From Chitinophaga pinensis (GTDB lineage Bacteria > Bacteroidota > Bacteroidia > UKL13-3), in NCBI GenBank assembly GCA_945898275.1, contig CAMDHZ010000002.1, positions 134,442 through 198,441 of the forward strand: a DNA stretch of 64,000 nt. The letters run 5' to 3'. Made by a program: the position numbers and the translations under genes. Below, in pieces: positions 4,875 to 59,975 of the stretch (the stretch's first letter is position 1; the number at the start of each line of letters is the position of its first letter). The notes under the pieces are model-generated. The model made no database searches and was not told where the DNA came from. It saw only the letters and a list, made by a program, of their open reading frames with translations.

Positions 4875-5681
4875 CTAAGAAATGTAATCAGCCATTTCAA
4901 ATTGCAATCTAGCTGCTTCTTCGGCTGCTTTCAATGCAAAATCATGGGAATTAGAAGCATAAATAATGCTTCTAGAAGCATTAATTAACAAACCAACACT
5001 TTGGTTCAAACCAAACTTAACGACATCTTTTAAGCTACCACCTTGTGCACCTACACCAGGTACCAATAAAAAATGATTAGGCGCATATTTTCGAATTAAT
5101 CCAAATTCTTCAGGTTTTGTGGCACCAACCACAAACATTAGGTTTTGGTTTGAACCTAATTTACAAGTGTTTTCAACTACATGTTCGAATAAAAACTTCT
5201 CTCCAATTTTTTGTTGTTCATAATCTGCACTACCAGGGTTGGAAGTTAATGCCAATACGATACCCCACTTTCCTTCAAATTCGAAAAATGGTGCAAGCGA
5301 ATCATTTCCCATGTAAGGAGCAAGTGTAACAGCATCAGCGTTTAATGTTTCAAAAAATGCTTTAGCATATTGATTACTTGTATTTCCAATGTCCCCTCTT
5401 TTCGCATCAGCAATTTTAAAGCATTGTTTTGGGATATAATCAAAGGTGCGTTTCATTGATTCCCAGCCAGAAGTTCCAGCCGCTTCAAAAAATGCTGTGT
5501 TAATTTTATAGGATACAGTGTAAGGTTCTGTAGCATCAATAATTGCTTTGTTAAAGGCGAAAATTGGATCAGGTTCAGTAAGCAGATGCGATGGAATTTT
5601 GCTGACATCAGTATCTAAACCAACACACAAAAAGGATTTTTTCCTTTTTATTTCTGAAACCAAATATTCAAAAGAATACAT
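4875..5681 (-). CDS. pyrF: Orotidine-5'-phosphate decarboxylase
   Basis: LCVGLD, ADAKRGDIGNT, LVPGVGAQGG, INASRSIIYA. Confidence 0.96.
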   Translation of the reverse strand: MYSFEYLVSEIKRKKSFLCVGLDTDVSKIPSHLLTEPDPIFAFNKAIIDATEPYTVSYKINTAFFEAAGTSGWESMKRTFDYIPKQCFKIADAKRGDIGNTSNQYAKAFFETLNADAVTLAPYMGNDSLAPFFEFEGKWGIVLALTSNPGSADYEQQKIGEKFLFEHVVENTCKLGSNQNLMFVVGATKPEEFGLIRKYAPNHFLLVPGVGAQGGSLKDVVKFGLNQSVGLLINASRSIIYASNSHDFALKAAEEAARLQFEMADYIS

Positions 5682-5683
5682 AA

Positions 5684-6367
5684 TTAAAATAGAAGATTAA
5701 ATTCAAGGGCAAAGTTATGCATACTACCCAATTTATTATTGATAGGTAAGTTATTATTACCAGGCCAATCTCTTCCAAGGTTTATATTTCTAAGGCCACC
5801 TTTAAAGCAAATCTGAAAAGCAATATAATCTAATTGATATTGATAAGCTGTAACTAAGGACCAATCATTATTATTTAAGGGGATATTTCCTTCGGCAGGA
5901 AATGTGTTATTGTCTTGAAAAACAAGTTTATTAAGAACATGACTAAATTGGGCTCCAGCACCAAATCTGTGCTGGCTTTTTGGACCTGGTTTAACCATAA
6001 GCATGACTGGAAAATCAAGGTATAAAAACTTAATAGCCCCAATATCTGGACTTGTTCCCTTAAAGTTTCCTCCCCTGAAGGTTATTAGTAATTCATGCTG
6101 TAAGCTAATTGTTTTATTAAAATTAACTCTTCCAAAACCGCCACCTAAAACGCCTAGTCTGGCGCCTTTGTCTATGGGATAACTTCCATAAATTGCAGTA
6201 ATGTTAAATCCCATTTTTATACCTAACCTATATCTTCCTTCATCAGAGGCTTTTACCCAAGGAATTGGTTGTTCTTCCACTTCTTCAGTAGAATCGGTTT
6301 GACCCAACAAGGTATTATTGAGAAAAAGCGAAATAAGTATTACAAATAGAATTCTCATTGTTTGCAC
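5684..6367 (-). CDS. Outer-membrane beta-barrel protein (PorT/OMP_b-brl-like)
   Basis: Signal peptide, GIKMGFN, YLDFPVML, amphipathic strands, C-terminal Phe. Confidence 0.7.
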   Translation of the reverse strand: MQTMRILFVILISLFLNNTLLGQTDSTEEVEEQPIPWVKASDEGRYRLGIKMGFNITAIYGSYPIDKGARLGVLGGGFGRVNFNKTISLQHELLITFRGGNFKGTSPDIGAIKFLYLDFPVMLMVKPGPKSQHRFGAGAQFSHVLNKLVFQDNNTFPAEGNIPLNNNDWSLVTAYQYQLDYIAFQICFKGGLRNINLGRDWPGNNNLPINNKLGSMHNFALEFNLLF

Positions 6368-6428
6368 AAAACTATATCATGCAAACGGTTAATTGTTTAA
6401 AAAATTCTAAATATTAGCTTAAAGAAAT

Positions 6429-7238
6429 TTACTTTAAGGTATATCGTTTTCTAACCACATCGTATGCTGTAAAATATCCAACGGCCCCATTTGTGATATT
6501 TGTTGGCAAATTAGCTGGAGGAGTTTGAAAAGGTCCAGGAATATCTGGGCTAGTATTGTTATATTCATTGATAAAGCTATACATGTTTTTATCAATAGAC
6601 CTAAAGATTGCTATAAAAACATCTCCACTATTGTACCTAGAAAAAGGCAATTCAAATACATAAGGCTTATTTACAGGAGTTAAACTATTATCAAAGGTAA
6701 TTTTATCAATGTTAAAAGAATCTTGGTTAATGATTTTACTATAAATTCCACTTACAAAATATGTATATTTTATTTGAGGTCTATCATCAAATCCAGCGTA
6801 GCTAACAGCCCAACCAGCAGGTAGTTGACCACCAAATTCAGCCTCTTTCCAAGTTTGGAAAATCGAGTCGACCCTGAACATTGGTTCCATATATGTTTGA
6901 GCAGTATAGGTTTTTTTATCATATTCAACCAAAAGAGAATAAGTAGTATTTATTTGTCCTTTGAACCCAATAGGCCCTTTGTAAACCTTTAGTGTATCAT
7001 CAAAAACAAAAGGAATATTGTTTACTTTAACCGAGGCATTTTCTATAATTGGCGGAGCATCTGGGCTATAATAATTTCTGCTAAGCGAGAGTTTAACATA
7101 TGAACTATCTGATTCATTAGTTACTTCTCCTTCTACTACTAATAGTGGGGTTTCATTTGGAATTTCTAAGTTTATTTTTTCGCTACATGAAAAAATAAAA
7201 AGTATTGAAATTGCTACGAGATATAGTTTGAATTTCAT
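6429..7238 (-). CDS. DUF4249-type lipoprotein
   Basis: Lipobox FSC, LVVEG.V, VKLSLS, C-terminal PTNITNGAVGYF. Lies downstream of a TonB-dependent receptor, as is typical. Confidence 0.8.
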   Translation of the reverse strand: MKFKLYLVAISILFIFSCSEKINLEIPNETPLLVVEGEVTNESDSSYVKLSLSRNYYSPDAPPIIENASVKVNNIPFVFDDTLKVYKGPIGFKGQINTTYSLLVEYDKKTYTAQTYMEPMFRVDSIFQTWKEAEFGGQLPAGWAVSYAGFDDRPQIKYTYFVSGIYSKIINQDSFNIDKITFDNSLTPVNKPYVFELPFSRYNSGDVFIAIFRSIDKNMYSFINEYNNTSPDIPGPFQTPPANLPTNITNGAVGYFTAYDVVRKRYTLK

Positions 7239-7243
7239 AAAAA

Positions 7244-9640
7244 TTAGAATTTAAAATTATAGGTTACGGATGGAACAATTGTGAACAAGTACCATTTATT
7301 AATAATTGGGACACCTGTATTTTCATCATTGGCATAGCTTAATGTGTAGGCATTTTTTCTTCCATAGACATTATAAATAGCAAATACCCAATCGCTTTCG
7401 TTTTTATAAATTCTTCCTGGTTTTTTCTTTCTTCCTAGTGTTAAAGAAACATCTGCTCTGTGATAGGCAGGAAATCTTGCATTATTTCTAGAACCATAAT
7501 AAATGGAAGGTTGTTCATCACCAAAAAGTGAGTATCGTTGGCTTGCTTGCGTAAAGGCTTCACCAGTAGCGAAAACAAAATTTCCAGAAATACTTACCCT
7601 TTCGTTAATTTTTTGGTTAAGAACAAAGGTTAAATAGTGTGTTCTATCAAATCTAAAGTTATACCAATTGCCTTTATTGATATTATCGGCTCTTCTTTCT
7701 GATTTTGAAATAGTGTAGCCCAACCAACCAGTAGTATTTCCACTTTGTTTTCTAGCAAAAAACTCGATTCCATATGAGCGACCTTCGCCTGCAACGATTT
7801 GGCCTTCTATTGCTTCATTGAATTGTATATCTGCACCTTCTCTTAACTCGATAGTGTTACTTAAAACTTTATAATAGCCTTCAGCAGAGAACTCAATTTT
7901 GTTGTCTAAAAAGTTTCTAAAATACCCAACAGCAACTTGATCAGCAATTTGGGGTTTTATATAATTATCACTTGGTGTCCAAAACTCTTGGCCTACACTA
8001 GCAGTAATGTTTTGTATCAAATGCATATATTGGTACATTCTGTTATATGAGCCTTTTAAAGAGCTATTGTCATTGATAACATAGGTGTAATTTATCCTTG
8101 GTTCAAACCCAATAAAAGTATTATAAATCTCGTTTGAACCGTAATTGGTATAAGGGTTTAGAGGGTCTTTGGCATTTTCTTTAATTTGACCATTTTCTAT
8201 ATAAGTAGGGTTACCTCCTACATAATTTATAGACCTGCCGCTTCCAATGTTAGAAAAAATTGAAATTCTGGCACCATATTCCAAAGATGAACGAGCACCA
8301 AATTTTGTAGAATGCGAGCCATAAATGTCTTGTTGAATTGCATTTTTGACTGGTAATGTTTGAGCTTCAACAATAGAAGTTGACTGGACTGGCTCAATTC
8401 TTCCAGGTAGGAACTCATACTTGTTAGCCTTAGCACCAAATTTAATAACATTTTTATTGTTTAAAAAATAGGTTCCATCTACTTTGATATTTACATCATT
8501 TAAATAGTTTATACGACTAAAGCTTAGGTTTTCACCCAAATTGATATCGAAATTGTAATTATACCTTGAATAAACCAAACTTGTATTTACAAACAATTTG
8601 CTACTAAAAATATGATTCCAACGCAATGTGCCTGTATAATTTCCCCATCCAAAGCCAAAAGCTTCATCCAAAGCTAGATCATCTCTCCCAAAGTAACCAC
8701 TCAAATAAATTTTATCCTTGTCACTTATAGCATAGTTGAGCTTTATATTTAAATCTCCGAAATAGGCAGTAACCTCAGATAATTGAGGAGAAAGCGGAAA
8801 AAACACATCAAAATAACTCCTTCTGCCACTTATTAGAAAAGAGGATTTATCTTTAATAATTGGAGCTTCAACTGTTAACCTACTTGAAAGTATACCAATT
8901 CCACCACTAGCGCCAAATTTCTTGGAGTTACCATCTTTCATGTGAACATCTAGAACTGAGGCTAATCTGCCACCATATTGGGCAGGAATTCCGCCTTTGT
9001 AAAGTTCAAAATCTTTTATTGCATCTCCATTAAATGTAGAAAAGAAACCCAAAACGTGAGAAGGATTATACACTACGGCTTCGTCTAATAGCACAAGGTT
9101 ATGGTCGATATTACCTCCTCTTACAATAAAATTAGTTGAACCATCTCCAGCGGCTTGAACCCCCGGTAACAATTGAATGGCTTTGATGATGTCAACTTCA
9201 CCTAATAAAATTGGTATTTTCTTAACTTGTTTAACATCAATTTTTACGACACTCATTTTATTTTGAGTGACATTGTTATTGCTAATTTTGTCAGAATTTA
9301 CAACAACTTCTTTTAAAGCCTTTTGTGACTCCTTTAGTTCAACATTTAGCTTAATGTTTTGGTTGATTACAAGCTCTTTTATTACACTTTCATACCCAAC
9401 ATAACTGATTTCGACTTTATAAAAACCTGCTGGTAAACTTATAGAATAAAAACCATAGGCATTGGTAGTAGTTCCTGTTTTTAACTCGGCAATGGCAATG
9501 GAGGCACCAATTAATTCTTCTCCATTTTTAGCGTCGGTTACTTCTCCGCTAATCGTATAGTTTTTGGTTTGAGCCAAAATTGAATTTGGTAAAATTAACA
9601 ACCAAGCAAAGCAAGTTGTAAGAAGTATTTTATGTAACAT
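7244..9640 (-). CDS. TonB-dependent receptor with carboxypeptidase-regulatory-like N-domain
   Basis: ISGEVTD..GEELIGASI, TNAYGFYSI, plug LLPGV..VRGG..NLVLLD, YKGG.PAQYGGRLASV, C-terminal PSVTYNFKF. Confidence 0.93.
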   Translation of the reverse strand: MLHKILLTTCFAWLLILPNSILAQTKNYTISGEVTDAKNGEELIGASIAIAELKTGTTTNAYGFYSISLPAGFYKVEISYVGYESVIKELVINQNIKLNVELKESQKALKEVVVNSDKISNNNVTQNKMSVVKIDVKQVKKIPILLGEVDIIKAIQLLPGVQAAGDGSTNFIVRGGNIDHNLVLLDEAVVYNPSHVLGFFSTFNGDAIKDFELYKGGIPAQYGGRLASVLDVHMKDGNSKKFGASGGIGILSSRLTVEAPIIKDKSSFLISGRRSYFDVFFPLSPQLSEVTAYFGDLNIKLNYAISDKDKIYLSGYFGRDDLALDEAFGFGWGNYTGTLRWNHIFSSKLFVNTSLVYSRYNYNFDINLGENLSFSRINYLNDVNIKVDGTYFLNNKNVIKFGAKANKYEFLPGRIEPVQSTSIVEAQTLPVKNAIQQDIYGSHSTKFGARSSLEYGARISIFSNIGSGRSINYVGGNPTYIENGQIKENAKDPLNPYTNYGSNEIYNTFIGFEPRINYTYVINDNSSLKGSYNRMYQYMHLIQNITASVGQEFWTPSDNYIKPQIADQVAVGYFRNFLDNKIEFSAEGYYKVLSNTIELREGADIQFNEAIEGQIVAGEGRSYGIEFFARKQSGNTTGWLGYTISKSERRADNINKGNWYNFRFDRTHYLTFVLNQKINERVSISGNFVFATGEAFTQASQRYSLFGDEQPSIYYGSRNNARFPAYHRADVSLTLGRKKKPGRIYKNESDWVFAIYNVYGRKNAYTLSYANDENTGVPIINKWYLFTIVPSVTYNFKF

Positions 9641-9755
9641 AATTGTAATAAATCACGACAAAACTAACTTGCTAATAGTTCAAACCAAGTTTAAAGCGAC
9701 AAAGTTTGTTACAGAGATGTTGAGTGGTAAATTTTTGTAGATGAAAGGGTTTGGT

Positions 9756-11450
9756 TCAAACCGAAACCTTAAGATTTGAATGCCTGATTCCATAACTGAA
9801 ATAAACTACCAAGCCAACCACCAGCCAAATACTAAAGCCGATCCAATTGCTAAGTCCTAATTCGGTCATCAAGTAGAAATTACTTGTTAATCCAAGCACC
9901 GGAATAAGAGAGAAGTTTCTTTTATAGCTAAGGAAGGTAATAACAATGCTAAGCATAAGAAAGCCAAATACTGGAATATTATGCCACCAATCTTGAAGGG
10001 TAAAAAGGTTTTGAATAAAATTGGGATTTAGGAGGACAGTTGAGAAAGCGCCAACCATAAAAATTGCGGGAACCCAGTATTTACCATTGATATAAGGAAC
10101 ACGAAAACCAGTATGGTATTCACTTTTGTGACTTTCCATTACAATAACAGCTGCATTTACTAGTACAAAGGCGAATAAAGTACCTATACTAGAAAGGTCG
10201 GTAACTTCCTTTAAATTCATAAACAAGGCAGGAACAGCTACCATAATTCCAGTTATGATAGTTGCAAACCAAGGTGTTTTGTAACGTGGATGAATGGCTG
10301 AGAATTTTTTAGGTAGAAGTCCATCCCTGCTCATGGTCATCCAAATGCGCGGTTGACCATTTTGGAACACTAAAAGCACACTAGCCATTGCAATTACAGC
10401 ACTAACTGCTACTATACCTTGCATCCATGGAAGATTAACTTTCTCAAATACAAAAGCTAATGGGTCTCCAACACCTAGTTCTTTATAATCTACCATTCCA
10501 GTGAGAACAATGGCAATAAGAATGTATAATACCGTACAAATGATTAGAGAGGCAATCATGCTTTTTGGCAAGTCTTTTTTAGGATTTTTACATTCTTCGG
10601 CAGTTGTCGCAAGGGCATCAAAGCCTACATAGGCAAAGAACACAGAAGACACACCCTTTAATACACCAGTTAAACCATTAGGAGCAAACGGGCTCCAATT
10701 TTCTGGGTTTACGTAGAAAGCGCCAACTACAATAACAAGGGCTACGACTATCAGCTTAAGCCCTACCATAATATTGCTAGCGTTTTTAGTTTCCTTAACA
10801 CCTCTAAAAATTAACCATGTTATGGCAATAACAATGGCAAGCGCGGGCAAATCTAAAATTAGTTTAAACCCTAAAATTTCTGGGGCTAAAGCCCAGGCAT
10901 TGCTTGCCTCAAGGAGCGATGAAGAGATTTCTTGGTGATTTGCCAATAAGGCCGTAGCTTCTTTGCTGCCATTGAACGCGCTTAAATAATCCATGCTAAA
11001 ATAAGATGGAATCTGAATTCCTAATCCGGAGAGTAGCCCTGTAAAATAGTCGCTCCAACTTATTGCAACCACAATGTTTCCAATGGCGTATTCTACAATT
11101 AGAGCCCAACCAATGATCCAAGCTATAAGTTCTCCGAAAGCTGCATATGCGTAAGTATAAGCCGAGCCACTGATAGGAATTACAGAAGCAAATTCTGCAT
11201 AACATAAAGCGGAAAACCCGCATGCAATGGCAGTAAAAACAAAAAGGGTAATTACTGCTGGTCCACCATGAAAACTTGCATTGCCAATGGTTGAAAAAAT
11301 TCCAGCACCAATGATTGCTGCAATTCCCATGGCAGTTAGGTCTTTAAAACCTAAGGTTCTGTGAAGTGCACCACCACTTTCTGATAGCGCTGCATGGTCG
11401 CGCTGAATATCAGCAATAGTTTTTTTTCTGAAGAGGGATTTGAGCTTCAC
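9756..11450 (-). CDS. APC-family (cationic amino acid type) permease
   Basis: GIAAIIGAGIF, CYAEFAS..P.SGSAYTY, FFAYVGFD, EECKNP; many TM helices; GTG start. Confidence 0.93.
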   Translation of the reverse strand: MKLKSLFRKKTIADIQRDHAALSESGGALHRTLGFKDLTAMGIAAIIGAGIFSTIGNASFHGGPAVITLFVFTAIACGFSALCYAEFASVIPISGSAYTYAYAAFGELIAWIIGWALIVEYAIGNIVVAISWSDYFTGLLSGLGIQIPSYFSMDYLSAFNGSKEATALLANHQEISSSLLEASNAWALAPEILGFKLILDLPALAIVIAITWLIFRGVKETKNASNIMVGLKLIVVALVIVVGAFYVNPENWSPFAPNGLTGVLKGVSSVFFAYVGFDALATTAEECKNPKKDLPKSMIASLIICTVLYILIAIVLTGMVDYKELGVGDPLAFVFEKVNLPWMQGIVAVSAVIAMASVLLVFQNGQPRIWMTMSRDGLLPKKFSAIHPRYKTPWFATIITGIMVAVPALFMNLKEVTDLSSIGTLFAFVLVNAAVIVMESHKSEYHTGFRVPYINGKYWVPAIFMVGAFSTVLLNPNFIQNLFTLQDWWHNIPVFGFLMLSIVITFLSYKRNFSLIPVLGLTSNFYLMTELGLSNWIGFSIWLVVGLVVYFSYGIRHSNLKVSV

Positions 11451-14311: not shown

Positions 14312-16054
14312 TTATTTTGGAGCAGCAATTGTTTGAATTAAAATATTTTGAAGAGAATCGCCCTTTTGCAAATTGTAGGCTAATAAGTAAAATTTTGCAT
14401 TTGCAATTGTGTTAAGGCTTTTCGGTTTGAACCAATAGTCCCCTTTTTGGTAAGTGCCTGGAGTTTCGTTACAAAATTGTAAGAGATATTTTTGTTCCCA
14501 AAAGATGGTTTTACCTGTAATAGTATCCTTTGCAAAAATGGCTATTTCGGTTCTAAGTTCATGTGGAAAGTTATGATAAAGCGACAGACGAAGTTCATCA
14601 CCATTTTCAATCCCAACAAAATTAAAGGCATTTGAAGCCATTAATGTATCTGGAATATTCCCTGCAGATTTGAAATTTGGAATGCTTAAAGCCTGAGTAA
14701 CAGTGGTACTAGGTTCACCACATTTTTGTTTCCAAACCCAACCTTTATAAGGACTTGAGGTTCTTAAAAAAACTTGCCAATACTTTTCTTTGTTCATTTG
14801 GTCCCAATGCAAAATGTACTCTTGGTGTTGCCAAGTTTGCGTTAGGTTAAGTAAAATCGAAAGGGTAATAATTATTCCTAAAACCAACTTAGAAGGCCAT
14901 TTAATTTTAAGATGCATCAATGAAACAGGTAAAATTAAAATGGGGAGATAGTCTAAATATACGCGTTGGCCGTAAGAACCTCCATAAAACCAGCTCCACC
15001 AACAACTGAAAACATAAGAAATTGCCAAAAAGTAGAGAATATAGTAAGTTATGAAGTATTTGTTTTTTTTGACCCCAGCCCAAATTGAGAGCAGTTGAAA
15101 GAGGAGGAGCAAAGGAGTATAAATAAATAGGCCTTTTTGATAGCTGAACCAAGAGTTTATAAGTTGGGGGTTATCAAAGTAAAAGCTTTCATTTTGATAA
15201 CTGTATACAATGAAATTACCCGTTTGTAAATACCATAAAAAACATTGCAGAGATAGCGTAATTCCAAAGATGATTAGGGCAAAAAGCAGTGACTTCCAGT
15301 ATCTGAATATATTTCTAAATAGAACAGTTAAGTTGTTAGCATTGCCTACTAATAGAGGGATTGAAAAAACCACTAAGAAATTTATAGGTCTTAAAAGGAT
15401 TATTAATGCCATTAAAAGACCCATTAAAAGTATAAATTTTGATTTGTTTTGGTAGAAGAAGGATATTGTAAAATAACAAAAAAGAGAAACGGCTGTAAAG
15501 GAAAAAACATGGCTAAATCCTGCATCAAACCACGCGTAGTGGGTAAATGGAGTAGCAAATAGGATGGAAAGCTGAACAAGAAAAATCAAATTACTTTCTA
15601 CATTTAACTGAATAAGCGTTTTCCGCAAGAAAACAAGACCGATGAACAACCAGAAAATTGCGGCAAATAAGACCATAACCTGATAGGGTAACTCATAGCC
15701 TGAATCAACATAACCAAGAACTTGTCTCACCAATTGAAGCGGTAAATAAAAAGGAAGTAAAAACGCTGCAGTTCCACAGGAGTATTTATTTACCCTAAGA
15801 TTGCCAAGATTATTGTAAGCATAATTTTGATCTATTCTGGAATAAATTAAAGGTTGTGTATTTCTTGGTTTATCTACCCTATTGATATCTTTATGAAGAA
15901 AAATTGAAGGCAGGTAATCGTAGTATCCATAAGCATCTGCATGAATAAAATCTTGGCGACTAGTAAATCCCCACAACATAATGAAAACGAAGGCCAGCAT
16001 TAAAGCTAGTTCTTTAATAATATGATTAAAGGGTTTTAATGCCATATTGAGCAA
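14312..16054 (-). CDS. Multi-pass membrane protein, GT-C-like glycosyltransferase candidate
   Basis: D..GYYDYLPS after TM1, NKY..G.A, LRP.N, KGLFIYTP, WW.W.YGGSYGQR; about 12 TM segments. Start may be ATG 16045. Confidence 0.55.
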   Translation of the reverse strand: MLNMALKPFNHIIKELALMLAFVFIMLWGFTSRQDFIHADAYGYYDYLPSIFLHKDINRVDKPRNTQPLIYSRIDQNYAYNNLGNLRVNKYSCGTAAFLLPFYLPLQLVRQVLGYVDSGYELPYQVMVLFAAIFWLFIGLVFLRKTLIQLNVESNLIFLVQLSILFATPFTHYAWFDAGFSHVFSFTAVSLFCYFTISFFYQNKSKFILLMGLLMALIILLRPINFLVVFSIPLLVGNANNLTVLFRNIFRYWKSLLFALIIFGITLSLQCFLWYLQTGNFIVYSYQNESFYFDNPQLINSWFSYQKGLFIYTPLLLLFQLLSIWAGVKKNKYFITYYILYFLAISYVFSCWWSWFYGGSYGQRVYLDYLPILILPVSLMHLKIKWPSKLVLGIIITLSILLNLTQTWQHQEYILHWDQMNKEKYWQVFLRTSSPYKGWVWKQKCGEPSTTVTQALSIPNFKSAGNIPDTLMASNAFNFVGIENGDELRLSLYHNFPHELRTEIAIFAKDTITGKTIFWEQKYLLQFCNETPGTYQKGDYWFKPKSLNTIANAKFYLLAYNLQKGDSLQNILIQTIAAPK

Positions 16055-20257: not shown

Positions 20258-20985
20258 CTGCGTTGCATTAAAGCTTCATACATAATGATGCCTGCTGCCA
20301 CAGATACATTTAGCGAGCTAACGCCAAAATTCATTGGAATTTGCGCTAATGCCGAGCATTTTTTAATTAATTCTAAACTAATACCCGTTTCTTCTCCACC
20401 CATGATGATGGCCAGAGGTCCTGTTAAATCGGTTTGGCTAATTGAATCTTTGGCTTTTTCTGTGCAAGCCACAGTTGTAAAGCCAGATTGATTTAGATAT
20501 TCTAAAGTAGTTTTAAGGTGTTTTTCTCTGCAAACGGGCAGTTTATGTAAAGCACCTGCCGATGTTTTGATGGCATCCTCATTCACAGGTGCAGTATCTG
20601 TTAGAGGAACAACCAAAGCATGTACCCCAGCGCATAGGGCTGTTCTAGCGATTGCTCCTAAATTTCTTACATCCTTTACACCATCTAAGATTAGAATAAA
20701 AGGTGTTTCGCCTTGCTCGAAAAGCGATGGAATAATTTGTTCTAAACTATGATAAGAAATGGGGGATGAAAAAGCCATAACCCCTTGGTGATTCTTATCT
20801 TTTAGGTTAAAAAACTTTTCTTTTGGTACGGTTTGAACCGGAACCTGCGCTCCACGAGCTGCTTTAAGCAATTCGTCGAGCGCAGGGTTAAAAATGCCTT
20901 TCATGACTTGGATTTTGATAAGGTCTTTACCAGCATCCAAGGCTTCTTTAACGGCATGGGTTCCGTAGATAATATTTTCTTTCAT
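20254..20985 (-). CDS. rlmB: 23S rRNA (G2251-2'-O)-methyltransferase
   Basis: IYGTHAV.EAL, NHQGV, D.RNLGAI.RTA, MGGEETG, SLNVSVA (SPOUT). Confidence 0.93.
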   Translation of the reverse strand: MKENIIYGTHAVKEALDAGKDLIKIQVMKGIFNPALDELLKAARGAQVPVQTVPKEKFFNLKDKNHQGVMAFSSPISYHSLEQIIPSLFEQGETPFILILDGVKDVRNLGAIARTALCAGVHALVVPLTDTAPVNEDAIKTSAGALHKLPVCREKHLKTTLEYLNQSGFTTVACTEKAKDSISQTDLTGPLAIIMGGEETGISLELIKKCSALAQIPMNFGVSSLNVSVAAGIIMYEALMQRS

Positions 20986-37193: not shown

Positions 37194-37264
37194 ATTTGGG
37201 TACCTGCTTGGTATAACCTATTGGTTCAACCCGAAACCCCTTTAAAATGCCCTATTTTACTTAG

Positions 37265-38533: not shown

Positions 38534-38548
38534 ATAACCATTAGATAG

Positions 38549-42523: not shown

Positions 42524-42675
42524 TTGATACTTTTATTTATATTTAATACCATGTAAGTTTTTCAAATGTAATTCCAAAATACTAATGACACTTTATCACT
42601 TATAAAAATACAACTTTGGAGGTATAGTGGCATAAGGTTTTTGATTCTTTATTTGCCTAATCAAAAACCCTTTTT

Positions 42676-43734: not shown

Positions 43735-43741
43735 ACCTTTT

Positions 43742-46030: not shown

Positions 46031-46037
46031 GTATACA

Positions 46038-47795: not shown

Positions 47796-47874
47796 AGGCG
47801 CATCAAAATAAGTGTATTGCCTCCATACTTGTATCCCAACAAAACTGTCAGTGGGTTTCTAAATCTAAAAAACA

Positions 47875-50094
47875 ATGAACACATCTAAACTTAAATTAAA
47901 ACTGTTGCTATTTTTATTAGCATCTCTTTTGCTGATTACTTGTAAAAAAGAGGAGGTACTTAAAGAGGATGAAAGCACTCCAACCACTACCACTCCAACT
48001 ACAAAAACACCTTTAGATTATGAAATCGACTATAATGTAAATATGATTTATTCGGTGATGTTGGTATCAGGTAATCATTACGCGATTGGACTAGGCAAAT
48101 CTAGTCCAACTTGGGTTGAAGGCGCTTTGGTAACCATTACGCAAGGCGATAAAGTGCTACAAAAAACAACAGGCGCAACGGGCGTGGTTAGCTTTAACGG
48201 CATCTTTAAAGGTTTGGTAGCTGTGAATATACAAAAGTCAGGGTTTACCACATTAAGTTATCTTGTATCTGCAAATGGATCTGTGGTGCAGTCTAACGGC
48301 ACACAGCTCGACTTGGCAAATCTTGTTTCTATTTTTAAGAAAGAAGACCCTACAAGCTCTGCAAGCCTCCAGGGAAGAGTTACCTATCAAAGTAACTTAA
48401 CAAACGAAACAAGAGAGCTTGTCCCTCAAAACACAAAGATTGTTGCTACCATTGATGTGGATGATCCTACTTTTAAATCAAATTATTTGAATTCGACTGG
48501 CATTCTTATACCAACTTCTTCCAATAATGGTAAAATAGTTCAGTATGCCTATGAGGCTTTTTTTTATGATACAACTGATGCTAATGGCAATTACTCCATC
48601 GCTGTGCCTGCAGGTATTGCAGGGTTGCCCTTTAAGTTAAATGCACCTGATTTAGCAGCAGATCAAGACCTTTATGAAAATTCAGGGGTATCTGGCTTTA
48701 ATAGAAAAGTTACAGTTAGAACAGTATTTAGCGCAAGCAGCACAGCAGTTCCAACTCCGGTACCATTGGCTGGTGGCGCAACAGTATTTTTTGTGACTGG
48801 GAGTGGAGCCTCGGCGTCTGCAAGCATTTCTGGCGCAGGTGAATTAGACAAAATCAATGTAACCAATGGAGGGTCTGGATATGCTTCCGCTCCTCGTGTA
48901 GTAATAACTGGTGGTGGTGGAAGTGGTGCTGCCGCTGTTGCTGTAATAGCAGGGGGTGTAGTAACAGCCATTAACCTTACATCTGCCGGTACAGGATATA
49001 CTTCTGAACCAAGTATTGGTTTAATTTCAGGTTCTGGCGCACAAATTAGCGCTACTATTGGGGGTGGATCAGCAATAAAATCAATTGTAGTGGTTAATTC
49101 AGGAACTGGGTACACAACTGTTCCCAATGTTACCATTGGCGCACCTAATTTACCAGGCGGAATCAATGCCACAGCCATTGCAAACATTAACAATGGGCGG
49201 CTTACAGGAATTACACTCACTAATATAGGTTCTGGATATACAACCATTCCAAGTATTGTAATAGACCCAGCTCCTTCAGGAGGCATAAATGCAAGTGCTT
49301 CAGCAAATCTTGCCGGGCAATCGGTTCAAACCGTAAGCATTTTAAATACTGGTTCAAACTACACAGGCGCCCCTACACTTGTTTTTTCTGAACCAAGTGT
49401 GAGCGGAGGTGTAAGAGCTACTGCTTCCGCACAAATTGATAATACAACAGGGCAAATTATTGGGATTATTTTGTTAAATGCAGGTTCTGGCTATACTTCT
49501 AATCCTACTATAACGGTAATCTCTGGATCAGGTGCTTCAGGACAAGCCATCACAAAAGGCAGATCGCTTACTGGTGTTACCATTGTTAATCAAGGAGACA
49601 ATTACGATTTTGCACCAGATGTAATCATCTCAGGCGGTGGCGGATCTGGGGCAACTGGAACTGCAAACATTACAAATGGACGTGTTACAGGAATTACCAT
49701 TACCAATCCTGGCTCAGGATACCAATTTCCGCCAAATATTAGCTTCTTCTCAGGCTCAGGTGCCCAAGCATCAGTTACAATAAACAATGGGGGTATAGCC
49801 TCAATAAAAGTTGTAAACCCAGGAAGCGGTTATGCAGGGGCACCTAGGATATTAATAGTTCCAAATGGCCCGGGCGGAGGTGCAACCGCAACGCCAGTTT
49901 ATGATGCCAATTCTAAATCTATTTCTGGCGTAACTATCACTAATGCTGGCACAGGTTTTATTGGTGGCAACGTACCATCAGTGTCTGAACCTTTCTCAAT
50001 TACACCAAGTTTATTAAGTGATAAGTTAATAGTAAGATCAGGCATGACTTATATCAGAGATATCTATTATGGAACAGGTAAAAGGGTAGAATAA
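47875..50094 (+). CDS. Surface lipoprotein with about 10 Gly/Ser/Thr-rich N.GSGY...P.V.I.GG.GSGA.A.A repeats
   Basis: Lipobox LITC followed by acidic KKEEVLKEDE; repeats NGGSGYASAP, SAGTGYTSEP, NSGTGYTTVP, NIGSGYTTIP, NTGSNYTGAP, NAGSGYTSNP, NQGDNYDFAP, NPGSGYQFPP, NPGSGYAGAP, NAGTGF. Confidence 0.8.
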   Translation: MNTSKLKLKLLLFLLASLLLITCKKEEVLKEDESTPTTTTPTTKTPLDYEIDYNVNMIYSVMLVSGNHYAIGLGKSSPTWVEGALVTITQGDKVLQKTTGATGVVSFNGIFKGLVAVNIQKSGFTTLSYLVSANGSVVQSNGTQLDLANLVSIFKKEDPTSSASLQGRVTYQSNLTNETRELVPQNTKIVATIDVDDPTFKSNYLNSTGILIPTSSNNGKIVQYAYEAFFYDTTDANGNYSIAVPAGIAGLPFKLNAPDLAADQDLYENSGVSGFNRKVTVRTVFSASSTAVPTPVPLAGGATVFFVTGSGASASASISGAGELDKINVTNGGSGYASAPRVVITGGGGSGAAAVAVIAGGVVTAINLTSAGTGYTSEPSIGLISGSGAQISATIGGGSAIKSIVVVNSGTGYTTVPNVTIGAPNLPGGINATAIANINNGRLTGITLTNIGSGYTTIPSIVIDPAPSGGINASASANLAGQSVQTVSILNTGSNYTGAPTLVFSEPSVSGGVRATASAQIDNTTGQIIGIILLNAGSGYTSNPTITVISGSGASGQAITKGRSLTGVTIVNQGDNYDFAPDVIISGGGGSGATGTANITNGRVTGITITNPGSGYQFPPNISFFSGSGAQASVTINNGGIASIKVVNPGSGYAGAPRILIVPNGPGGGATATPVYDANSKSISGVTITNAGTGFIGGNVPSVSEPFSITPSLLSDKLIVRSGMTYIRDIYYGTGKRVE

Positions 50095-53270: not shown

Positions 53271-54113
53271 ATGGTTCAATATAACCCCAAAGAATGGTTT
53301 GGTTTAATATTTAGGTTTCATAAAAGCGATACCTTTCGGCAACTATTTTGGGTGATGGTTTGTGTAGCTTTGTATTCATTTATACTGGCTTATTTAGAAA
53401 TTGAGGTACTTTCTCTAAACTTTAAGTCCAATCCTGCTTTGCACAGCATATTGGGATTTGTGTTGTCGATATTATTGGTTTTTAGAACAAATACAGCCTA
53501 CGACAGATGGTGGGAAGGTAGAAGACATTGGGGCGCCTTAACCAATTACTCTAGGTCTTTGGCTATAAAAATCAAAAGTATGCTACCCAATAAGGATGAT
53601 AAATATAAGCAATTGATGTATTGGATAGGAATCTATCCGCAAGTTTTGGCAGCGCATTTAAGAAATAATAAGTTTGAAGGATTTCAAATTCCTACCAATG
53701 TTCATCAGCCAAATTTTGTTTACCATCAATTGGTTAGCGGTTTGAACCAAATGAAGCAAGAGGGTAAACTGAATGATTTACAATTGCTTCAACTCAACAT
53801 AGAGCTTTTGTGTTATCCAGAGGTTTGTGGGGCTTGTGAAAGAATTAAGAATACGCCAATTCCTTTTAGTTATAGCATGTTTTTAAAAAAGTTTATCTTT
53901 ATCTATATTATAACAATGCCTTATGGTTTCATCAAGGAGTTTGAGTATGGAATTGTGTTGGTTGTAACATTTGTGCTTTATGTTTTAGGAAGTTTAGAGT
54001 TGGTAGCAGAGGAAATAGAAAACCCATTTGGTACAGATGCCAATGATTTGAATTTGGATGAAATGGCGAGAAATATTCAATTAAATGTAGAAGAAATTGA
54101 ACAATCTTTTTAA
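53271..54113 (+). CDS. Bestrophin-family ion channel
   Basis: LVFRTNTAYDRWWEGR..WG, CERI.NTPIP, EIENPFG.D.NDL. Confidence 0.93.
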   Translation: MVQYNPKEWFGLIFRFHKSDTFRQLFWVMVCVALYSFILAYLEIEVLSLNFKSNPALHSILGFVLSILLVFRTNTAYDRWWEGRRHWGALTNYSRSLAIKIKSMLPNKDDKYKQLMYWIGIYPQVLAAHLRNNKFEGFQIPTNVHQPNFVYHQLVSGLNQMKQEGKLNDLQLLQLNIELLCYPEVCGACERIKNTPIPFSYSMFLKKFIFIYIITMPYGFIKEFEYGIVLVVTFVLYVLGSLELVAEEIENPFGTDANDLNLDEMARNIQLNVEEIEQSF

Positions 54114-54702
54114 TCAAAATCAACCCAATATTTTACCCTGCGACGGTGAGCTTTATTTAATTGAAAACTTTTTTTCCTCAATTGAATCTAAGCAAATTTA
54201 CACGACATTACTTGAGGAAATAGATTGGCAACAATACCAAATAAAAATGTTTGGTAAAATGATTAACCAACCTCGGCTAACAGCTTGGTATGGAGAAGAA
54301 AATATAGCTTATAGTTATTCTGGTTTGAGCCTAAATGCCTTGCCTTTTACTCCTTTATTAGAGAATTTAAGAACCAAAATTGAAGAGAATTTTCAAGCAA
54401 GTTTTAACAGCGTATTACTGAATTTATATAGAAATGAAAAGGACAGCATGGGTTGGCATGCCGATGATGAAAAAGAATTAGGCAGTTCCCCTATTATTGC
54501 ATCACTCAGTTTTGGTTCAACCCGAAAATTCTTACTAAAACATAAACAAGATAAAGCACTTAAATTGGGGATAAATCTTACACCCGGTAGTTTAGTGTTA
54601 ATGAAAGGAACGATGCAACATCATTGGCTACATGCTATCCCAAAAACAACGATAAATTGTGATTCAAGAATAAATCTGACCTACAGAAAAATACTGTTTT
54701 AA
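54097..54702 (+). CDS. AlkB-family 2OG-Fe(II) dioxygenase (ALKBH2/3 type)
   Basis: PRLTAWYG, FNSVLLNLYR...DSMGWHADDE, W.HAIPK, RINLTYR. Confidence 0.93.
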   Translation: MNNLFNQNQPNILPCDGELYLIENFFSSIESKQIYTTLLEEIDWQQYQIKMFGKMINQPRLTAWYGEENIAYSYSGLSLNALPFTPLLENLRTKIEENFQASFNSVLLNLYRNEKDSMGWHADDEKELGSSPIIASLSFGSTRKFLLKHKQDKALKLGINLTPGSLVLMKGTMQHHWLHAIPKTTINCDSRINLTYRKILF

Positions 54703-56883: not shown

Positions 56884-58144
56884 AGACGCTCTAGATCAGC
56901 AACTATTCGATAGCTTGCATACCTTTGAAAGCACACCAAATGATAAGTTGTTTGAAAGCATGCAAACTCAACGCAACAATAAGAAAAGGAAAATGGTCTT
57001 TGCTTGGTTTTGGCTTTTACCAGTTGCTGCTGCAAGTATTTTAGCATTTAGTTATTGGTTTCGGTTTGAACCAACCTTAGCGCCCCAAAAACAAGTAGGA
57101 AATAAGCTTGCTGATAAAGCACCTTTAAATACACCTGAAAAGAAACTTACTTCTAAAAAGCACCACCATAAAAATTCAAATAAAGCCTCAAAGAATTTCA
57201 CGAGTCAAAGTTTGGTTCAAACCGAAAAAAAAGAGCACCGGAAAATTAGAAAATTAACACCAAGAAAAGCTCTTAAAGAACCAATGAGCACTGCGGAACA
57301 AAAGGGCCAGCAAGCGCTACCTATAATTGAGAATGTTAATCCCACTGCTTTTAATTCAACAGGGTTTTCTAATCTATTTAATGATTCCCTGAACTTTGCA
57401 GATACAATTAGGGCATCGGTTTGCGAAAACATTGAAATTCCAGCTGATAAATTGGGTTTAATTAATGTACAAAGTGATAAGCCTAATAAGCAATGGTGGC
57501 TAGCTGCTAATTATCTGCAGTTATTTGGAAAAGGTGTGTTAAGTAATAATGAGGAGAGCTTTTTACAAATAACAGATAAACCATCAAGTAACTCTGCACA
57601 AGCTGCTTATGGCTTGAATCTTTTGCTGGGAAAGCGAATTTACAAGAATTTTTGGCTCTGGACGGGCTTGCAATATCAACGTACCATTTTTACTGACATG
57701 CGCTTATATACTGACTATACGGAAGGAAATATTAATGCAAGTGGGGATGAGATGTTTTATCATAAGCAATACTTTGATTTAAATTATACAACAGCCACTT
57801 TACCGCTTGGAATAACTTACTTGAAGCAACTGAATAAATGGCAATTAAAAATGGATGTTGCTGCTCAATTTAACTATCTTTTAGCTACCTCTTCTATGCG
57901 CTATGATCCTATAAGTAAAGCCATTGAATCGCCTATTAATGCCGCAAATCAAGATAGATTTAATAGAAAAATGTTTGGCCTTACAAGCACGGCATCGGCA
58001 GGATACAGCATTCGAAAAAATCTTTGGATGAATGCAGGTTTAGGGGCAATTGGTTACCGCAGAAGTTATTTAAATCCAAGTGTATACAATAAGAAACCAA
58101 GCGCCAATTTTGTCATACAAATGGGATTACAATATTATTTTTAA
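56867..58144 (+). CDS. Putative dual-membrane-spanning anti-sigma factor (short cytoplasmic domain, TM helix, Lys-rich linker, C-terminal beta-barrel)
   Basis: Overlaps the sigma gene; TM MVFAWFWLLPVAAASILAFSYWF at about aa 43-65; low-complexity linker; barrel ending QMGLQYYF. Confidence 0.72.
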   Translation: MNTKDKDALDQQLFDSLHTFESTPNDKLFESMQTQRNNKKRKMVFAWFWLLPVAAASILAFSYWFRFEPTLAPQKQVGNKLADKAPLNTPEKKLTSKKHHHKNSNKASKNFTSQSLVQTEKKEHRKIRKLTPRKALKEPMSTAEQKGQQALPIIENVNPTAFNSTGFSNLFNDSLNFADTIRASVCENIEIPADKLGLINVQSDKPNKQWWLAANYLQLFGKGVLSNNEESFLQITDKPSSNSAQAAYGLNLLLGKRIYKNFWLWTGLQYQRTIFTDMRLYTDYTEGNINASGDEMFYHKQYFDLNYTTATLPLGITYLKQLNKWQLKMDVAAQFNYLLATSSMRYDPISKAIESPINAANQDRFNRKMFGLTSTASAGYSIRKNLWMNAGLGAIGYRRSYLNPSVYNKKPSANFVIQMGLQYYF

Positions 58145-58148: not shown

Positions 58149-58177
58149 TGTAACATGCGAGTCATTTAGATAGTCTT
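58149..58177 (+). promoter_or_regulatory. Second putative ECF promoter TGTAACA-N15-TAGTCTT
   Basis: Ends 22 nt upstream of ATG 58200; elements identical to 56278-56306. Confidence 0.7.
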
Positions 58178-58199
58178 TGGTATATAATCATTAATAGCT

Positions 58200-58931
58200 A
58201 TGCAAAAATTAAACAACCTGGCAGCCATGTTTGCCATTTCAATTTTAGTAGGATTTGTATCTTGTAAGAAATTAGAAGAAGGAAAGGGCAGTGGTGGCGG
58301 CTATTCCAAAGATTGCAATCTTTCAGGCACCTTAATCAAAACAGATTATAGTAGAAGTGTTTTAAACAATTTATGGATACAGGGTGGCAACGGAGAGATT
58401 TACCAAGCCTGCGCCAATGACATAATTAACTTTACGGCAGAAAGTTATACCGAAGGACAAAAAGTAGTATTTGGCACAAGAGCGCTAAAGTCAAATGAAA
58501 CTTGCGAAAGTATTTTTATTGAATGCCCAAATGGAATGATTATGCCTACCCAAAAGGTTGGTATTACTTGTATTAATAAGGTTTCTGGCAAGTGTAGCAA
58601 AAGTTTAATCAATAGTCCGTCTTTAGATAAAGAGCAAACAGTAAGCATAGAAAACGTATGGCAAGAAGGAAACAATTTAAAGTTATTAGTGGCATTTAGT
58701 GGCTGTAATTTTGATGCTTCACCCATTAATTTACATTGGGATGGGAATCTAAAGGAGAGCATGCCTATGCAGATAGAATTTGCATTAGGAAATATGCCAG
58801 CGCCACAGATGTGTTTGGCCTATTTTACAGATACGCTTTGTTATGATATAAGTAGTTTAAAAGCGCATGGCAATCAATATATCCTGCAAGTAAAGGGTTA
58901 TAAAAAAGGACAAATTCCAATTAAGTTTTAA
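58200..58931 (+). CDS. Cys-rich lipoprotein with NigD-like C-terminal domain
   Basis: Lipobox VSC-KK; C-domain L.L.V.FSGC...L.W.G...ES.P.Q...CLAY......YDIS.L. Confidence 0.6.
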   Translation: MQKLNNLAAMFAISILVGFVSCKKLEEGKGSGGGYSKDCNLSGTLIKTDYSRSVLNNLWIQGGNGEIYQACANDIINFTAESYTEGQKVVFGTRALKSNETCESIFIECPNGMIMPTQKVGITCINKVSGKCSKSLINSPSLDKEQTVSIENVWQEGNNLKLLVAFSGCNFDASPINLHWDGNLKESMPMQIEFALGNMPAPQMCLAYFTDTLCYDISSLKAHGNQYILQVKGYKKGQIPIKF

Positions 58932-59423
58932 TTAGGGTGTAGCTGTGATATGCAGTTGTGTGCCCAGATTTCGTACATAATACTGTCTAAGGCCCCGCTT
59001 TGCGGGGCCTTCTATTTGCGAACCATTGCTGGCCACAAACCTAGACCCGCAACAACTTGTAAAATTACTGCCTTTAAATTGTCCGCATTTAAAAAAAATA
59101 CCTGAGGCTTCAACACTTACATAACTGCAACTACTATCTACATTCACTGGGCAAGATCTGTCGAAGGCAACATATTTTTCCTGCCCTTCAAAGCCAGTAT
59201 TATATATAATTATCCCGCGCTGTCTGTACCCTTGGTTCAACTCATAAGCATAGCCATTGGTAAATTGTAAATCTGCATAGCTTGGCAAATTTAAGTTCAC
59301 ATAAAAATCTACATTAACAGGCGGAAAAAAATCGCCTTGTTGGTTTCTGCTTTCATCCTTACGACAACCAGCAAAAACCAGCGTTGCTAAACAAAAAACT
59401 AGAATGATTCTCATTACCTTCAT
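58932..59423 (-). CDS. Rieske-like lipoprotein
   Basis: Lipobox AGC; LNLPSY..L; AFDRSCP...C...C...CCGSRF...G....GPA..GL..Y. Confidence 0.65.
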   Translation of the reverse strand: MKVMRIILVFCLATLVFAGCRKDESRNQQGDFFPPVNVDFYVNLNLPSYADLQFTNGYAYELNQGYRQRGIIIYNTGFEGQEKYVAFDRSCPVNVDSSCSYVSVEASGIFFKCGQFKGSNFTSCCGSRFVASNGSQIEGPAKRGLRQYYVRNLGTQLHITATP

Positions 59424-59468
59424 GCCTCAAAGATAACTGATTTAACGCTGAGATGATTACATCAATAC

Positions 59469-59975
59469 TTATAAACCTGAATTGGGAATTTCCTCAAGTT
59501 CTAGTACTTCTTTATAATAGTTTTTGCCATCAGAAAACACACCAATTAAAACAAGTTTTTTACCTCGCTTATCTACAGTATAAGTAACCCTTCGCACAAA
59601 ATCTGTACCTGTTGGAATCGTAAAAAAGCTAAAAGATTTAGCCTCTTTCCAATCGGCATACCATAAAATACCAGCCCCAGAACTTGTTAACTTTTGAAAC
59701 GAATTGCCCCAAGAAACAGGATATGCTTTAACTTTAAAATCTATTTGGTTATAGGTGTCGCTGCTATTATCCCAAAAAATAATGGAACCTAAAGTATCTA
59801 GGTCATAAATGGTTTTATTAAAATCGCCCGATACCGAATCTTGCTTTATCCATTGGTATCGGCTAATTTTTCTAGGTCCGCTAAAGTTTTGTCTTAAACC
59901 ATTTTCAGTTTTGCAGGCGCCAAGTGTTACTAAAACAATTAAAAGGGCGGTTTGAACCAAGCGATTAATCTTCAT
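59469..59975 (-). CDS. Hypothetical lipoprotein
   Basis: Lipobox LGAC-K; beta-rich. Confidence 0.6.
   Translation of the reverse strand: MKINRLVQTALLIVLVTLGACKTENGLRQNFSGPRKISRYQWIKQDSVSGDFNKTIYDLDTLGSIIFWDNSSDTYNQIDFKVKAYPVSWGNSFQKLTSSGAGILWYADWKEAKSFSFFTIPTGTDFVRRVTYTVDKRGKKLVLIGVFSDGKNYYKEVLELEEIPNSGL

Follow-up and report, generated by a model that had tools for sequence, protein, structure and literature searches.

The window considered here, i.e., the whole stretch of DNA that was analysed (64 kb; contig C2:134442-198441), belongs to a metagenome bin (G000; 3.52 Mb in 106 contigs, 35.8% G+C, 98% complete, 1.1% contaminated). Its genes, among them an amino-acid permease, an M1 peptidase and several proteins sorted by the type IX secretion system (T9SS), are interspersed with copies of a short word, GGTTCAAACC, which is the subject of this text. 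Exactly 18 exact copies are present in the window, nine on each strand, and all of them lie at the coordinates and on the strands given in an earlier reading of this DNA, hereafter the original prediction (Table 1). In 100 dinucleotide-preserving shuffles of the window the word occurred 0.16 times on average and never more than once, while the longer form TTGGTTCAAACCRA, with eight copies in the window, was found in none of the shuffles, and TTGGTTCAAACC with up to one mismatch had 29 matches in the window vs 0.73 in the shuffles. The 18-mer TTGGTTCAAACCGAAACC is indeed identical at 9751-9768 (+) and 57057-57074 (-), and the peptides that the word had been said to encode (WFKP at 14424, GSN, VQT, GLN, and FEP), as well as its overlap with the stop codon of the permease gene, were recovered. 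Among the proposed one-off variants, those at 6296, 31051, 32743, 33020, 37221, and 54512 stand, whereas 8131, 9677, 12154, and 21727 fall outside the list of sites with up to one mismatch to TTGGTTCAAACC.

Abundance and anatomy of the word

Genome-wide, GGTTCAAACC is present in 785 copies (394 + / 391 -), or one exact copy per 4.5 kb, and the overlapping TTGGTTCAAA in 787, which makes these two the commonest canonical 10-mers of the genome; the most frequent 10-mer unrelated to the motif reaches 227 copies. According to a gene model built with our own simple heuristic for open reading frames (ORFs; 2826 genes covering 89.7% of the genome), 634 copies (~81%) are situated within genes, 140 are intergenic, and 11 straddle a gene end. 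When synonymous codons were shuffled within each gene and the proteins kept, 46.0 ± 5.9 copies were found vs the 634 observed in coding DNA; when the codon order was shuffled, 6.4 ± 2.3 were found; and Markov models of order 1-5 predicted 8-56 copies vs the total of 785. Since the two codon shuffles lose most of the coding copies, neither composition nor codon usage nor protein sequence accounts for the enrichment, which is 14- to 100-fold. The motif is genuine and its reach extends far beyond the window. The enrichment foreseen by the original prediction thus holds against a codon-preserving null (634 vs 46) and is limited neither to this window nor to promoters. Peptides compatible with the motif are about seven times more frequent in the proteins than amino-acid content would predict (46 vs 6.4), an excess which suggests an influence of the word on protein sequences as well.

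Within genes, the copies are evenly distributed along the gene length and make use of all five stop-free frames (sense 100, 36, and 223; antisense 199 and 76). The sixth frame, G GTT TGA ACC, contains TGA and is therefore possible only where TGA is the stop codon; it was seen in 0 of the 634 coding copies, so that the claim of an embedding in all six frames is correct for five of them and, for the sixth, reduces to overlaps with stop codons. Taken together, the five frames and the codon shuffles bear out the view that the force acts on the DNA and not on the protein. Density is 2.5x higher in intergenic than in coding DNA (0.505 vs 0.201 per kb), with 0.73 copies per kb in convergent and 0.40 in divergent spacers, and 52 of the 75 copies in co-directional spacers are closer to the preceding stop codon, at a median distance of 36 nt (p = 0.001).

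No polarity with respect to strand or replication is associated with the word, as had been stated for the window. Copies in skew-positive DNA number 206 + / 210 - and those in skew-negative DNA 169 + / 160 -, and 49-54% of the motif 8-mers are on the inferred leading strand, in a GC-skew test of moderate power, as the most skewed 8-mers reach just 65-68% and the strand assignment is imperfect. Copies of both orientations are thoroughly intermixed along all of the 15 largest contigs, and bins of 20 kb contain 4.85 copies on average with a variance of 5.98, which is near Poisson. Polarised signals for recombination or for translocases, of the Chi, KOPS (FtsK-orienting polar sequences), or AIMS (architecture-imparting sequences) type, would share with this word that they are short, over-represented oligomers of the core genome, yet the lack of polarity, including the interleaving of the nine + and nine - copies of the window, already contradicts such an origin, within the modest power of the GC-skew test, and we consider it very improbable.

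The alignment of all 785 copies limits the information to positions -3 to +14, with the consensus TnGGtTCAAACCrAAA or, in a fuller form, t-T-n-G-G-t-T-C-A-A-a-c-c-R-A-a-a. Upstream, T-2 is present in 97% and T-1 in 64% of the copies, and downstream, position +10 is G in 56% and A in 30%, followed by A, A, A, and c. A weak excess of A (41-45% vs 32% in the background) continues to about +22, and farther out the flanks are background; the word is one of 12-17 bp and no piece of a longer repeat. A census of every single-substitution variant of TTGGTTCAAACC (487 copies), with reversed words as controls (0-6 copies), separates strict positions (T-2, G0, G1, T3, C4, A5, and A6), whose variants have 0-9 copies genome-wide with the exceptions of A5-to-G (33 copies) and A6-to-G (19 copies), from tolerant ones (-1, T2, A7, C8, and C9) with 9-137 copies per variant. 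The same split emerges, independently, from the divergence per position between two species, which amounts to 0-2% at strict positions, 2-4% at T2, A7, C8, and C9, and 6% at -1, vs 13% at +10 and 5-12% in the flanks outside the core. The recognised core is the asymmetric T.GG.TCAA, with all strict positions on its left side.

The quasi-palindrome, as which the original prediction had described the word, is incidental, because true palindromes are rare (GGTTCGAACC with 60 and GGTTTAAACC with 26 copies vs 785 for the asymmetric word) and the right arm (A7, C8, C9) tolerates change; the central CA/TG breaks the symmetry, and a perfect palindrome in the manner of the cyanobacterial HIP1 word is not formed. 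A stem-loop of the form tTTGG-TTCAAA-CCRAAa was considered and rejected, as the pairs -1/+10, -2/+11, -3/+12, and -4/+13 are without Watson-Crick covariation. The likeness of GGTTCAA to the T-loop of tRNA, the consensus of which is G52 G53 T54 psi55 C56 R57 A58, led nowhere either: the flanks are unpaired as a T-stem, the word is neutral to the gene strand, and mimicry of the T-loop was dropped.

High copy number and a partly self-complementary core are also what remnants of repetitive extragenic palindromes (REP) or miniature inverted-repeat transposable elements (MITE) would display, and abundance as such could be the footprint of a common protein motif. The background flanks beyond -3/+14, the lack of hairpin covariation, and the differences between genomes by substitutions rather than insertions (see below) speak against mobile repeats, as do, for the repeats and the protein motif alike, the location of ~81% of the copies within genes in five frames and the fall from 634 to 46 copies after the synonymous shuffle. 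With these data on flanks, covariation, frames, and shuffles, both origins are already contradicted, and there is hardly any probability left for them.

Evolution, lineage distribution and depletion of the sites

Comparison with related genomes (of which G005, G006, G010, G013, G017, G021, G045, G047, G050, G052, G080, and G082 are referred to by label) revealed that the sites are actively maintained. In 363 kb that could be aligned with G010 at 93.8% identity, 88 of the 101 sites are intact vs 60% of all 10-mers (p = 2e-9), and 23 of the 24 sites present in just one of the two genomes differ by substitutions alone. The two genomes diverge by 6.2% overall, by 1.5% within the word, and by 7.5% in its flanks of ±200 bp, vs 6.3 ± 0.46% in random windows; the word is a conserved island within faster-evolving parts of genes, with a divergence about four times slower than that of its surroundings. 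At a larger distance, 41 of 71 sites (58%) are intact vs 10.7% of the control in the 304 kb aligned with G006 at 76% identity (p = 6e-22). In six distant samples (~69-72% identity), 5 of 42 sites are intact vs ~5% in the control, and 48 of 167 loose-core sites are common with G000; with so few sites kept at this identity, it follows that the positions of sites turn over in the long term. Scored with G006 as the outgroup, 54 sites comprise 29 that are common to all three genomes, 16 shared by G000 and G010 only, and nine which, by parsimony, represent six gains and three losses since the split of G000 and G010, and several of the gains reached the word via successive substitutions. Small as the numbers are, they indicate that the process of gain and loss is still active.

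Point substitutions toward the word, some of them stepwise, could also arise as a side effect of mutation or repair with a sequence-specific bias, for instance, if very-short-patch (VSP) repair acted together with a methyltransferase and turned near-matches into the word, and a frame with Vsr and C5-methyltransferase domains does occur on contig C81. However, Vsr was detected neither in G082 nor in any of the 18 other genomes searched from the genus, yet it occurs in seven genomes of motif-less genera, and one-off variants at strict positions are not depleted below the level of the reversed controls (0-6 copies). VSP repair affects the frequencies of words by small factors, and the ~100-fold excess lies far beyond such effects. 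A bias of this kind is therefore improbable as the origin of the word.

With 759 copies in G000 vs 11 of its reversed control, the 12-mer TNGGTTCAAACC was found in all 24 other genomes of the genus (38-1297 copies, controls at most 14), and 16 genomes from other families of the class contain 0-6 copies, in agreement with the lineage specificity that had been proposed. When the 81 family genomes with a completeness of 90% or more were compared, the 12-mer clearly exceeded its control solely in the genus and in G082, which belongs to another genus (69 vs 3). Within the genus, the ratio of the loose core TNGGNTCAAA to its control is 2.6-9.5 in every one of the 19 genomes scored; it is 5.6 in G082 from the sister genus, 2.8-2.9 in two of the seven species of genus g19 (G047 and G050), 2.4 in G080, ~2 in G052, and ~1 in the remainder. 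The top k-mers vary by species (TTGGTTCAAAA in G082, GGGTTCAA in G021, and TTGGTTTAAA in G005; G010 and G017 resemble G000, and G045 has none), which suggests species dialects of a shared core. These dialects are provisional, as the k-mers were counted in stretches of 80-400 kb only, and a logo seeded with GG.TCAA was too noisy for defining them. The other leading 10-mers of G021 (ATGAGGTATG and CTCATACCTC) and of G013 (GAATTATGAA and TCATAATTCA) probably stem from repeats, tandem or dispersed, that have nothing to do with the motif.

Within G000, 14 contigs with a length of 8 kb or more, which sum to 239,647 bp, contain one exact copy vs 53 expected (P = 3e-22), and the loose core is likewise at background on them. 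The four largest are a capsule or exopolysaccharide cluster and three defence islands (Table 1), and the gene set of one of the latter, C33, is presumably DISARM-like. C5 and N4/N6 methylases and a second gene of the DprA family are located on motif-poor accessory contigs as well. This second gene (C42:6261-6872), on an 18-kb motif-free contig, is more divergent (126.7 bits vs 242.2 for the main copy) and may be part of a mobile element. For C24 and C33 no counterpart was found in five relatives, one of which is 94% identical elsewhere. Whether the depleted contigs represent islands of recent acquisition or DNA that was binned wrongly, the word marks DNA long resident in the lineage. In a long contig of G010, 23.6 kb of unaligned DNA carries four copies (1.69 vs 2.71 per 10 kb; a small sample). 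Ten IMG/VR contigs that differ in G+C have the 16-mer TTGGTTCAAACCGAAA in a single copy each, and the stretches retrieved from them contain no more, which is chance-like, and this result is uninformative on the phages of the genus.

The M1 peptidase (ORF 34791-36734, +), which bears a T9SS sorting tail, carries three exact cores. Between the copies at 36553 and 49323, a 12.7-kb interval (window 37265-50094) is without an exact copy, for which the chance is ~6% and which is not significant alone; the region codes for T9SS-sorted proteins (PKD, BACON, and Por_Secre_tail domains), a 7TMR-DISM histidine kinase, and a LuxR-type response regulator. Immediately downstream of the tRNA gene at 36784-36855, 11 tandem copies of a 22-bp unit (TTTATGGAGTAGCTCCGCACCT, 88% matches) occupy 36953-37197, and relatives that are 80-86% identical were found on contigs C37, C25, and C5 of G000 and also in G006 and G010. 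T9SS sorting domains and SusC-like barrels, both in the window and in the genome, are consistent with membership of the Bacteroidota.

Table 1. Exact copies and tolerated variants of the word in the window (window positions), followed by candidate outer-membrane barrels and the four largest depleted contigs of G000
Feature	Location	Strand	Context
Exact core	5003..5012	+	flank ttGG..CCaa; ORF 4875-5681(-), antisense, FGLNQS
Exact core	5147..5156	-	flank taGG..; ORF 4875-5681(-), sense, LGSNQN
Exact core	8100..8109	+	ORF 7244-9640(-), antisense, IGFEPR
Exact core in 18-mer TTGGTTCAAACCGAAACC	9753..9762	+	overlaps stop codon of ORF 9756-11450(-), amino-acid permease (Pfam AA_permease_2)
Exact core	14424..14433	-	ORF 14312-16045(-), sense, YWFKPK
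Exact core	19357..19366	+	flank tcGG..; ORF 18491-20257(+), sense, ESVQTE
Exact core without T-2	20830..20839	-	flank ccGG..; ORF 20254-20985(-), sense, VPVQTV
Exact core	27675..27684	-	ORF 26088-28193(+), antisense, LGLNQV
Exact core	29016..29025	+	ORF 28380-31181(+), sense, FGSNRV
Exact core	34589..34598	+	ORF 33903-34769(+), sense, YLVQTA
Exact core without T-2	35100..35109	+	flank atGG..; ORF 34791-36734(+), sense, HGSNQT
Exact core	35172..35181	-	ORF 34791-36734(+), antisense, IGLNQI
Exact core	36553..36562	-	ORF 34791-36734(+), antisense, VWFEPS
Exact core	49323..49332	+	flank tcGG..; ORF 47875-50094(+), sense, QSVQTV
Exact core	53739..53748	-	ORF 53271-54113(+), antisense, SGLNQM
Exact core in 18-mer TTGGTTCAAACCGAAACC	57063..57072	-	ORF 56867-58144(+), antisense, FRFEPT
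Exact core	57214..57223	+	ORF 56867-58144(+), sense, SLVQTE
Exact core	59949..59958	-	ORF 59469-59975(-), sense, RLVQTA
Variant TTGGTTCAAAAC, C8 to A, tolerated	4341..4352	-	class: 64 genome copies; reversed controls 0-6
Variant TTGGGTCAAACC, T2 to G, tolerated	6296..6307	-	class: 73 genome copies
Variant TTGGCTCAAACC, T2 to C, tolerated	9566..9577	-	class: 25 genome copies
Variant TTGGCTCAAACC, T2 to C, tolerated	16218..16229	+	
Variant TTGGTTCAACCC, A7 to C, tolerated	31051..31062	-	class: 97 genome copies
Variant TTGGGTCAAACC, T2 to G, tolerated	32743..32754	+	
Variant TTGGTTCAAGCC, A7 to G, tolerated	33020..33031	-	class: 58 genome copies
Variant TTGGTTCAACCC, A7 to C, tolerated	37221..37232	+	intergenic
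Variant TTGGTTCAACCC, A7 to C, tolerated	54512..54523	+	
Variant TTGGCTCAAACC, T2 to C, tolerated	63012..63023	-	
Candidate barrel, 938 residues, CarboxypepD_reg + OMP_b-brl_3	C8:35938-39481		adjoins GLPGLI-family protein
Candidate barrel, 998 residues	C2:84307-88340		adjoins endonuclease/exonuclease/phosphatase-family gene
Motif-poor contig	C24		capsule or exopolysaccharide cluster
Motif-free contig, defence island	C33		SNF2 helicase, Eco57I-type methylase, DEAD helicase with MZB domain
Motif-free contig, defence island	C35		HsdM-type methylases (type I restriction-modification), NERD helicase
Motif-free contig, defence island	C36		glycosyltransferase, PLD-SNF2 protein, Eco57I/TaqI_C methylase, SMC-like ATPase; type IIG or BREX-like methylase

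Possible roles in DNA uptake or intracellular binding

We favour, with a probability of about 0.5, the reading of the word as a signal for DNA uptake or self-recognition that would resemble the uptake signal sequences (USS) of the Pasteurellaceae and the DNA uptake sequences (DUS) of the Neisseriaceae and would operate via a pilus-independent route. It is outside the USS and DUS systems in the strict sense, as the defining pilus machinery was tested for and is absent. A DNA receptor at the surface or in the periplasm would bind double-stranded DNA with T.GG.TCAA in preference to other DNA, and import via ComEA, ComEC, and DprA, followed by recombination, would thus be more frequent for DNA of the same genus than for foreign DNA. 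Uptake bias and recombination, possibly together with selection, would then act as a molecular drive that could have multiplied the word across the core genome, with point mutations creating it at places where protein function permits. Biased DNA uptake as the driving force is the part of this reading that we infer from the patterns described above. More tentatively, with somewhat less than even chances in our estimate, the word would be the first DNA-uptake specificity signal of the Bacteroidota and the first to be read by a pilus-independent outer-membrane receptor, the dialects would be barriers to gene flow between uncultured Bacteroidota that occur together, and the reader would be a new extracellular sequence-specific DNA-binding protein.

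Of the inner competence machinery, G000 encodes ComEC, DprA (two genes), and, on contig C17, a ComEA-like protein in which two HHH_3 domains are present; ComEC and ComEA are among the co-occurring genes that the original prediction had named as a check. As the lineage has neither a pilus ATPase of type IV nor a secretin, a pilus-independent route through the outer membrane would be needed for uptake. Such a route has a precedent in Riemerella, which is described as naturally transformable without pilus genes and whose transformation is reported to depend on ComEC, DprA, ComF, and RecA, on a helix-hairpin-helix protein, and on a barrel of the outer membrane together with the protein encoded beside it (PMC8459023). 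Homology of this pair to DdbC and DdbD (DUF5689) of Bacteroides is reported (PMC12478041). Riemerella columbina is reported to favour its own DNA, and in the k-mer table of that report, the words listed are all A-rich and of low complexity, with no uptake sequence found (PMC7965970).

The hunt for an uptake receptor in G000 yielded leads only and no receptor. Several barrels with CarboxypepD_reg and OMP_b-brl_3 domains are encoded, two of which were taken as candidates (Table 1). The ComEC gene is followed, on the same strand and with overlapping ends, by the genes for an enoyl-CoA hydratase and a 236-residue DUF4412 protein that is weakly GLPGLI-like, and this apparent operon (C13:54843-58377) might hide a competence accessory protein.

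Several observations weigh against an uptake signal, first of all those on the machinery. ComEC is encoded in 80 of the 81 family genomes, motif or no motif, and being near-universal, the competence genes therefore do not discriminate the carriers of the motif. No match to T2SSE or a PilB/PilT-type ATPase (PF00437) or to a secretin (PF00263) was obtained in G000, which is 98% complete, and the cut-off for PF00437 was passed by two of the 81 family genomes, one of them an assembly with 8% contamination; with both components missing, recognition machinery of the USS or DUS type is absent. DdbD (DUF5689) has no clear homologue, the best candidate in G000 being a sub-threshold match of 25.6 bits in an ORF of 1877 residues, and the DUF5689 matches across the family are weak and distributed without regard to the motif. 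The 998-residue candidate barrel is widespread, with orthologues of at least 40% identity in motif-less genera. Inverted pairs less than 200 bp apart, in the manner of DUS terminators, are not enriched (+- 16, -+ 16, ++ 12, -- 10). USS and DUS have a density of about one per kb, and the exact copies (one per 4.5 kb) are below it. The accessory contigs could be mis-binned rather than islands of G000, the genus is represented by uncultured assemblies alone, and the strong conservation of sites is equally consistent with selection for any DNA-binding function.

This last point leads to the principal alternative, a selected binding word comparable to HIP1 for an intracellular protein, such as a nucleoid-associated protein, a loader of SMC/condensin, a recombination or repair protein, or a methylation-linked reader, with no role in uptake. 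The conservation of sites (41 of 71 vs 10.7%), the four-fold lower divergence, the even spread, the lack of pili in the lineage, and the fact that no uptake receptor was found all speak for such a protein, and a review sets HIP1 apart from uptake sequences (PMC4390886). HIP1 itself is now argued to be linked to uptake (PMC13756078), and the near-absence of the word from accessory DNA would be unexpected for an organisation of the whole chromosome. That 5 of 42 sites are kept at ~71% identity suggests that density matters and not place. Sites for nucleoid organisation or partition (parS, matS, Noc, and SlmA) number in the tens and are regional, unlike the 785 evenly spread copies. An intracellular reader is further disfavoured by a motif that is not palindromic and by the methyltransferases, those located (C5, N4/N6, and Eco57I-type) being all on small motif-poor accessory contigs, in a search that left out Dam-type families and methylomes; the link to a methyltransferase for GGTTNNAACC drawn in the original prediction is not supported by these data. 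In one frame of 562 residues (C81:334-1989), a Vsr domain and a C5 DNA-methyltransferase domain are combined, apparently as a fusion. Overall, an intracellular reader appears less likely to us than the uptake signal, with the remaining probability left to the minor alternatives and to explanations not conceived of here, although sequence alone cannot settle between uptake, recombination, and a nucleoid-protein site.

Significance and comparison with known systems

If the word is an uptake signal, genomic self-marks would have evolved repeatedly and with different machinery, the word would offer a handle on the outer-membrane DNA receptor of Bacteroidota competence, and adding it to donor DNA could open a route to the genetic manipulation of lineages that have none. 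It is already of practical use as a marker for bin refinement and the finding of islands, as core DNA contains 5.2 core sites per 10 kb vs well below one in acquired or mis-binned DNA. Even without a role in uptake, a word that is 100-fold enriched and actively maintained is a real open problem. In agreement with the original prediction, no such motif was found described for the phylum in the literature searched, which covers few subscription journals. Among the 20 listed of 77 papers that contain the 10-mers, titles and abstracts have nothing to do with over-represented motifs of bacteria, and in one of these papers the 10-mer is part of cloning primers and of target oligonucleotides for a meganuclease.

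To our knowledge, sequence-specific signals for DNA uptake are established only for the Pasteurellaceae and Neisseriaceae, with HIP1 as a debated third case. Three classes of strongly over-represented words in bacteria, namely Chi, uptake sequences, and HIP1, are distinguished in a review (PMC4390886), and a paper from 2026 argues, citing studies of enhanced transformation, that HIP1 is related to uptake (PMC13756078). The properties of the word rule out signals of the Chi type and match those of uptake signals point by point. Chi, KOPS, and AIMS are alike in being over-represented oligomers of the core genome and unlike in that theirs are strand-polarised with replication.

HIP1 (GCGATCGC) of the cyanobacteria is likewise hyper-abundant and independent of frame and strand, with a debated function, and it is reported to be conserved beyond neutral expectation (PMC5861425). 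It differs in being a perfect palindrome that is found phylum-wide and accompanied by conserved orphan methyltransferases, whereas the word described here is asymmetric, has the rank of a genus, and is without a methyltransferase found in the core genome (Dam-type not searched). The transformation system of Riemerella and the DdbCD transporter of the Bacteroidales share with G000 the phylum, the lack of pilus genes, and the set of ComEC, DprA, and a helix-hairpin-helix protein. They are unlike in that no uptake sequence was found for Riemerella, and here a clear signal is present with no convincing DdbD (DUF5689) partner.

The DUS of the Neisseriaceae resemble the word in their rank of genus or family and in their species dialects with a conserved core (PMC3630211), and also in their depletion in acquired elements and enrichment downstream of genes. 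They are read by the minor pilin ComP (PMC3868556), unlike the situation here, where no pilus genes were found and inverted-pair terminators were not seen. With the USS of the Pasteurellaceae, the differences are another sequence, another phylum, the lack of type IV pilus machinery, and a lower density here. The two are alike in a short asymmetric core with an A/T-rich extension, in hundreds to thousands of copies that are divided equally between the strands and located mostly within genes in several frames, in positions of very unequal weight, and in lineage subtypes. USS sites are situated in less conserved parts of genes and are born by point mutation at orthologous places, and the same location in faster-evolving parts of genes and the same birth by point mutation were computed here for this word. 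The likeness to USS, DUS, and HIP1 rather than to Chi, KOPS, or parS, as proposed in the original prediction, is thus upheld.

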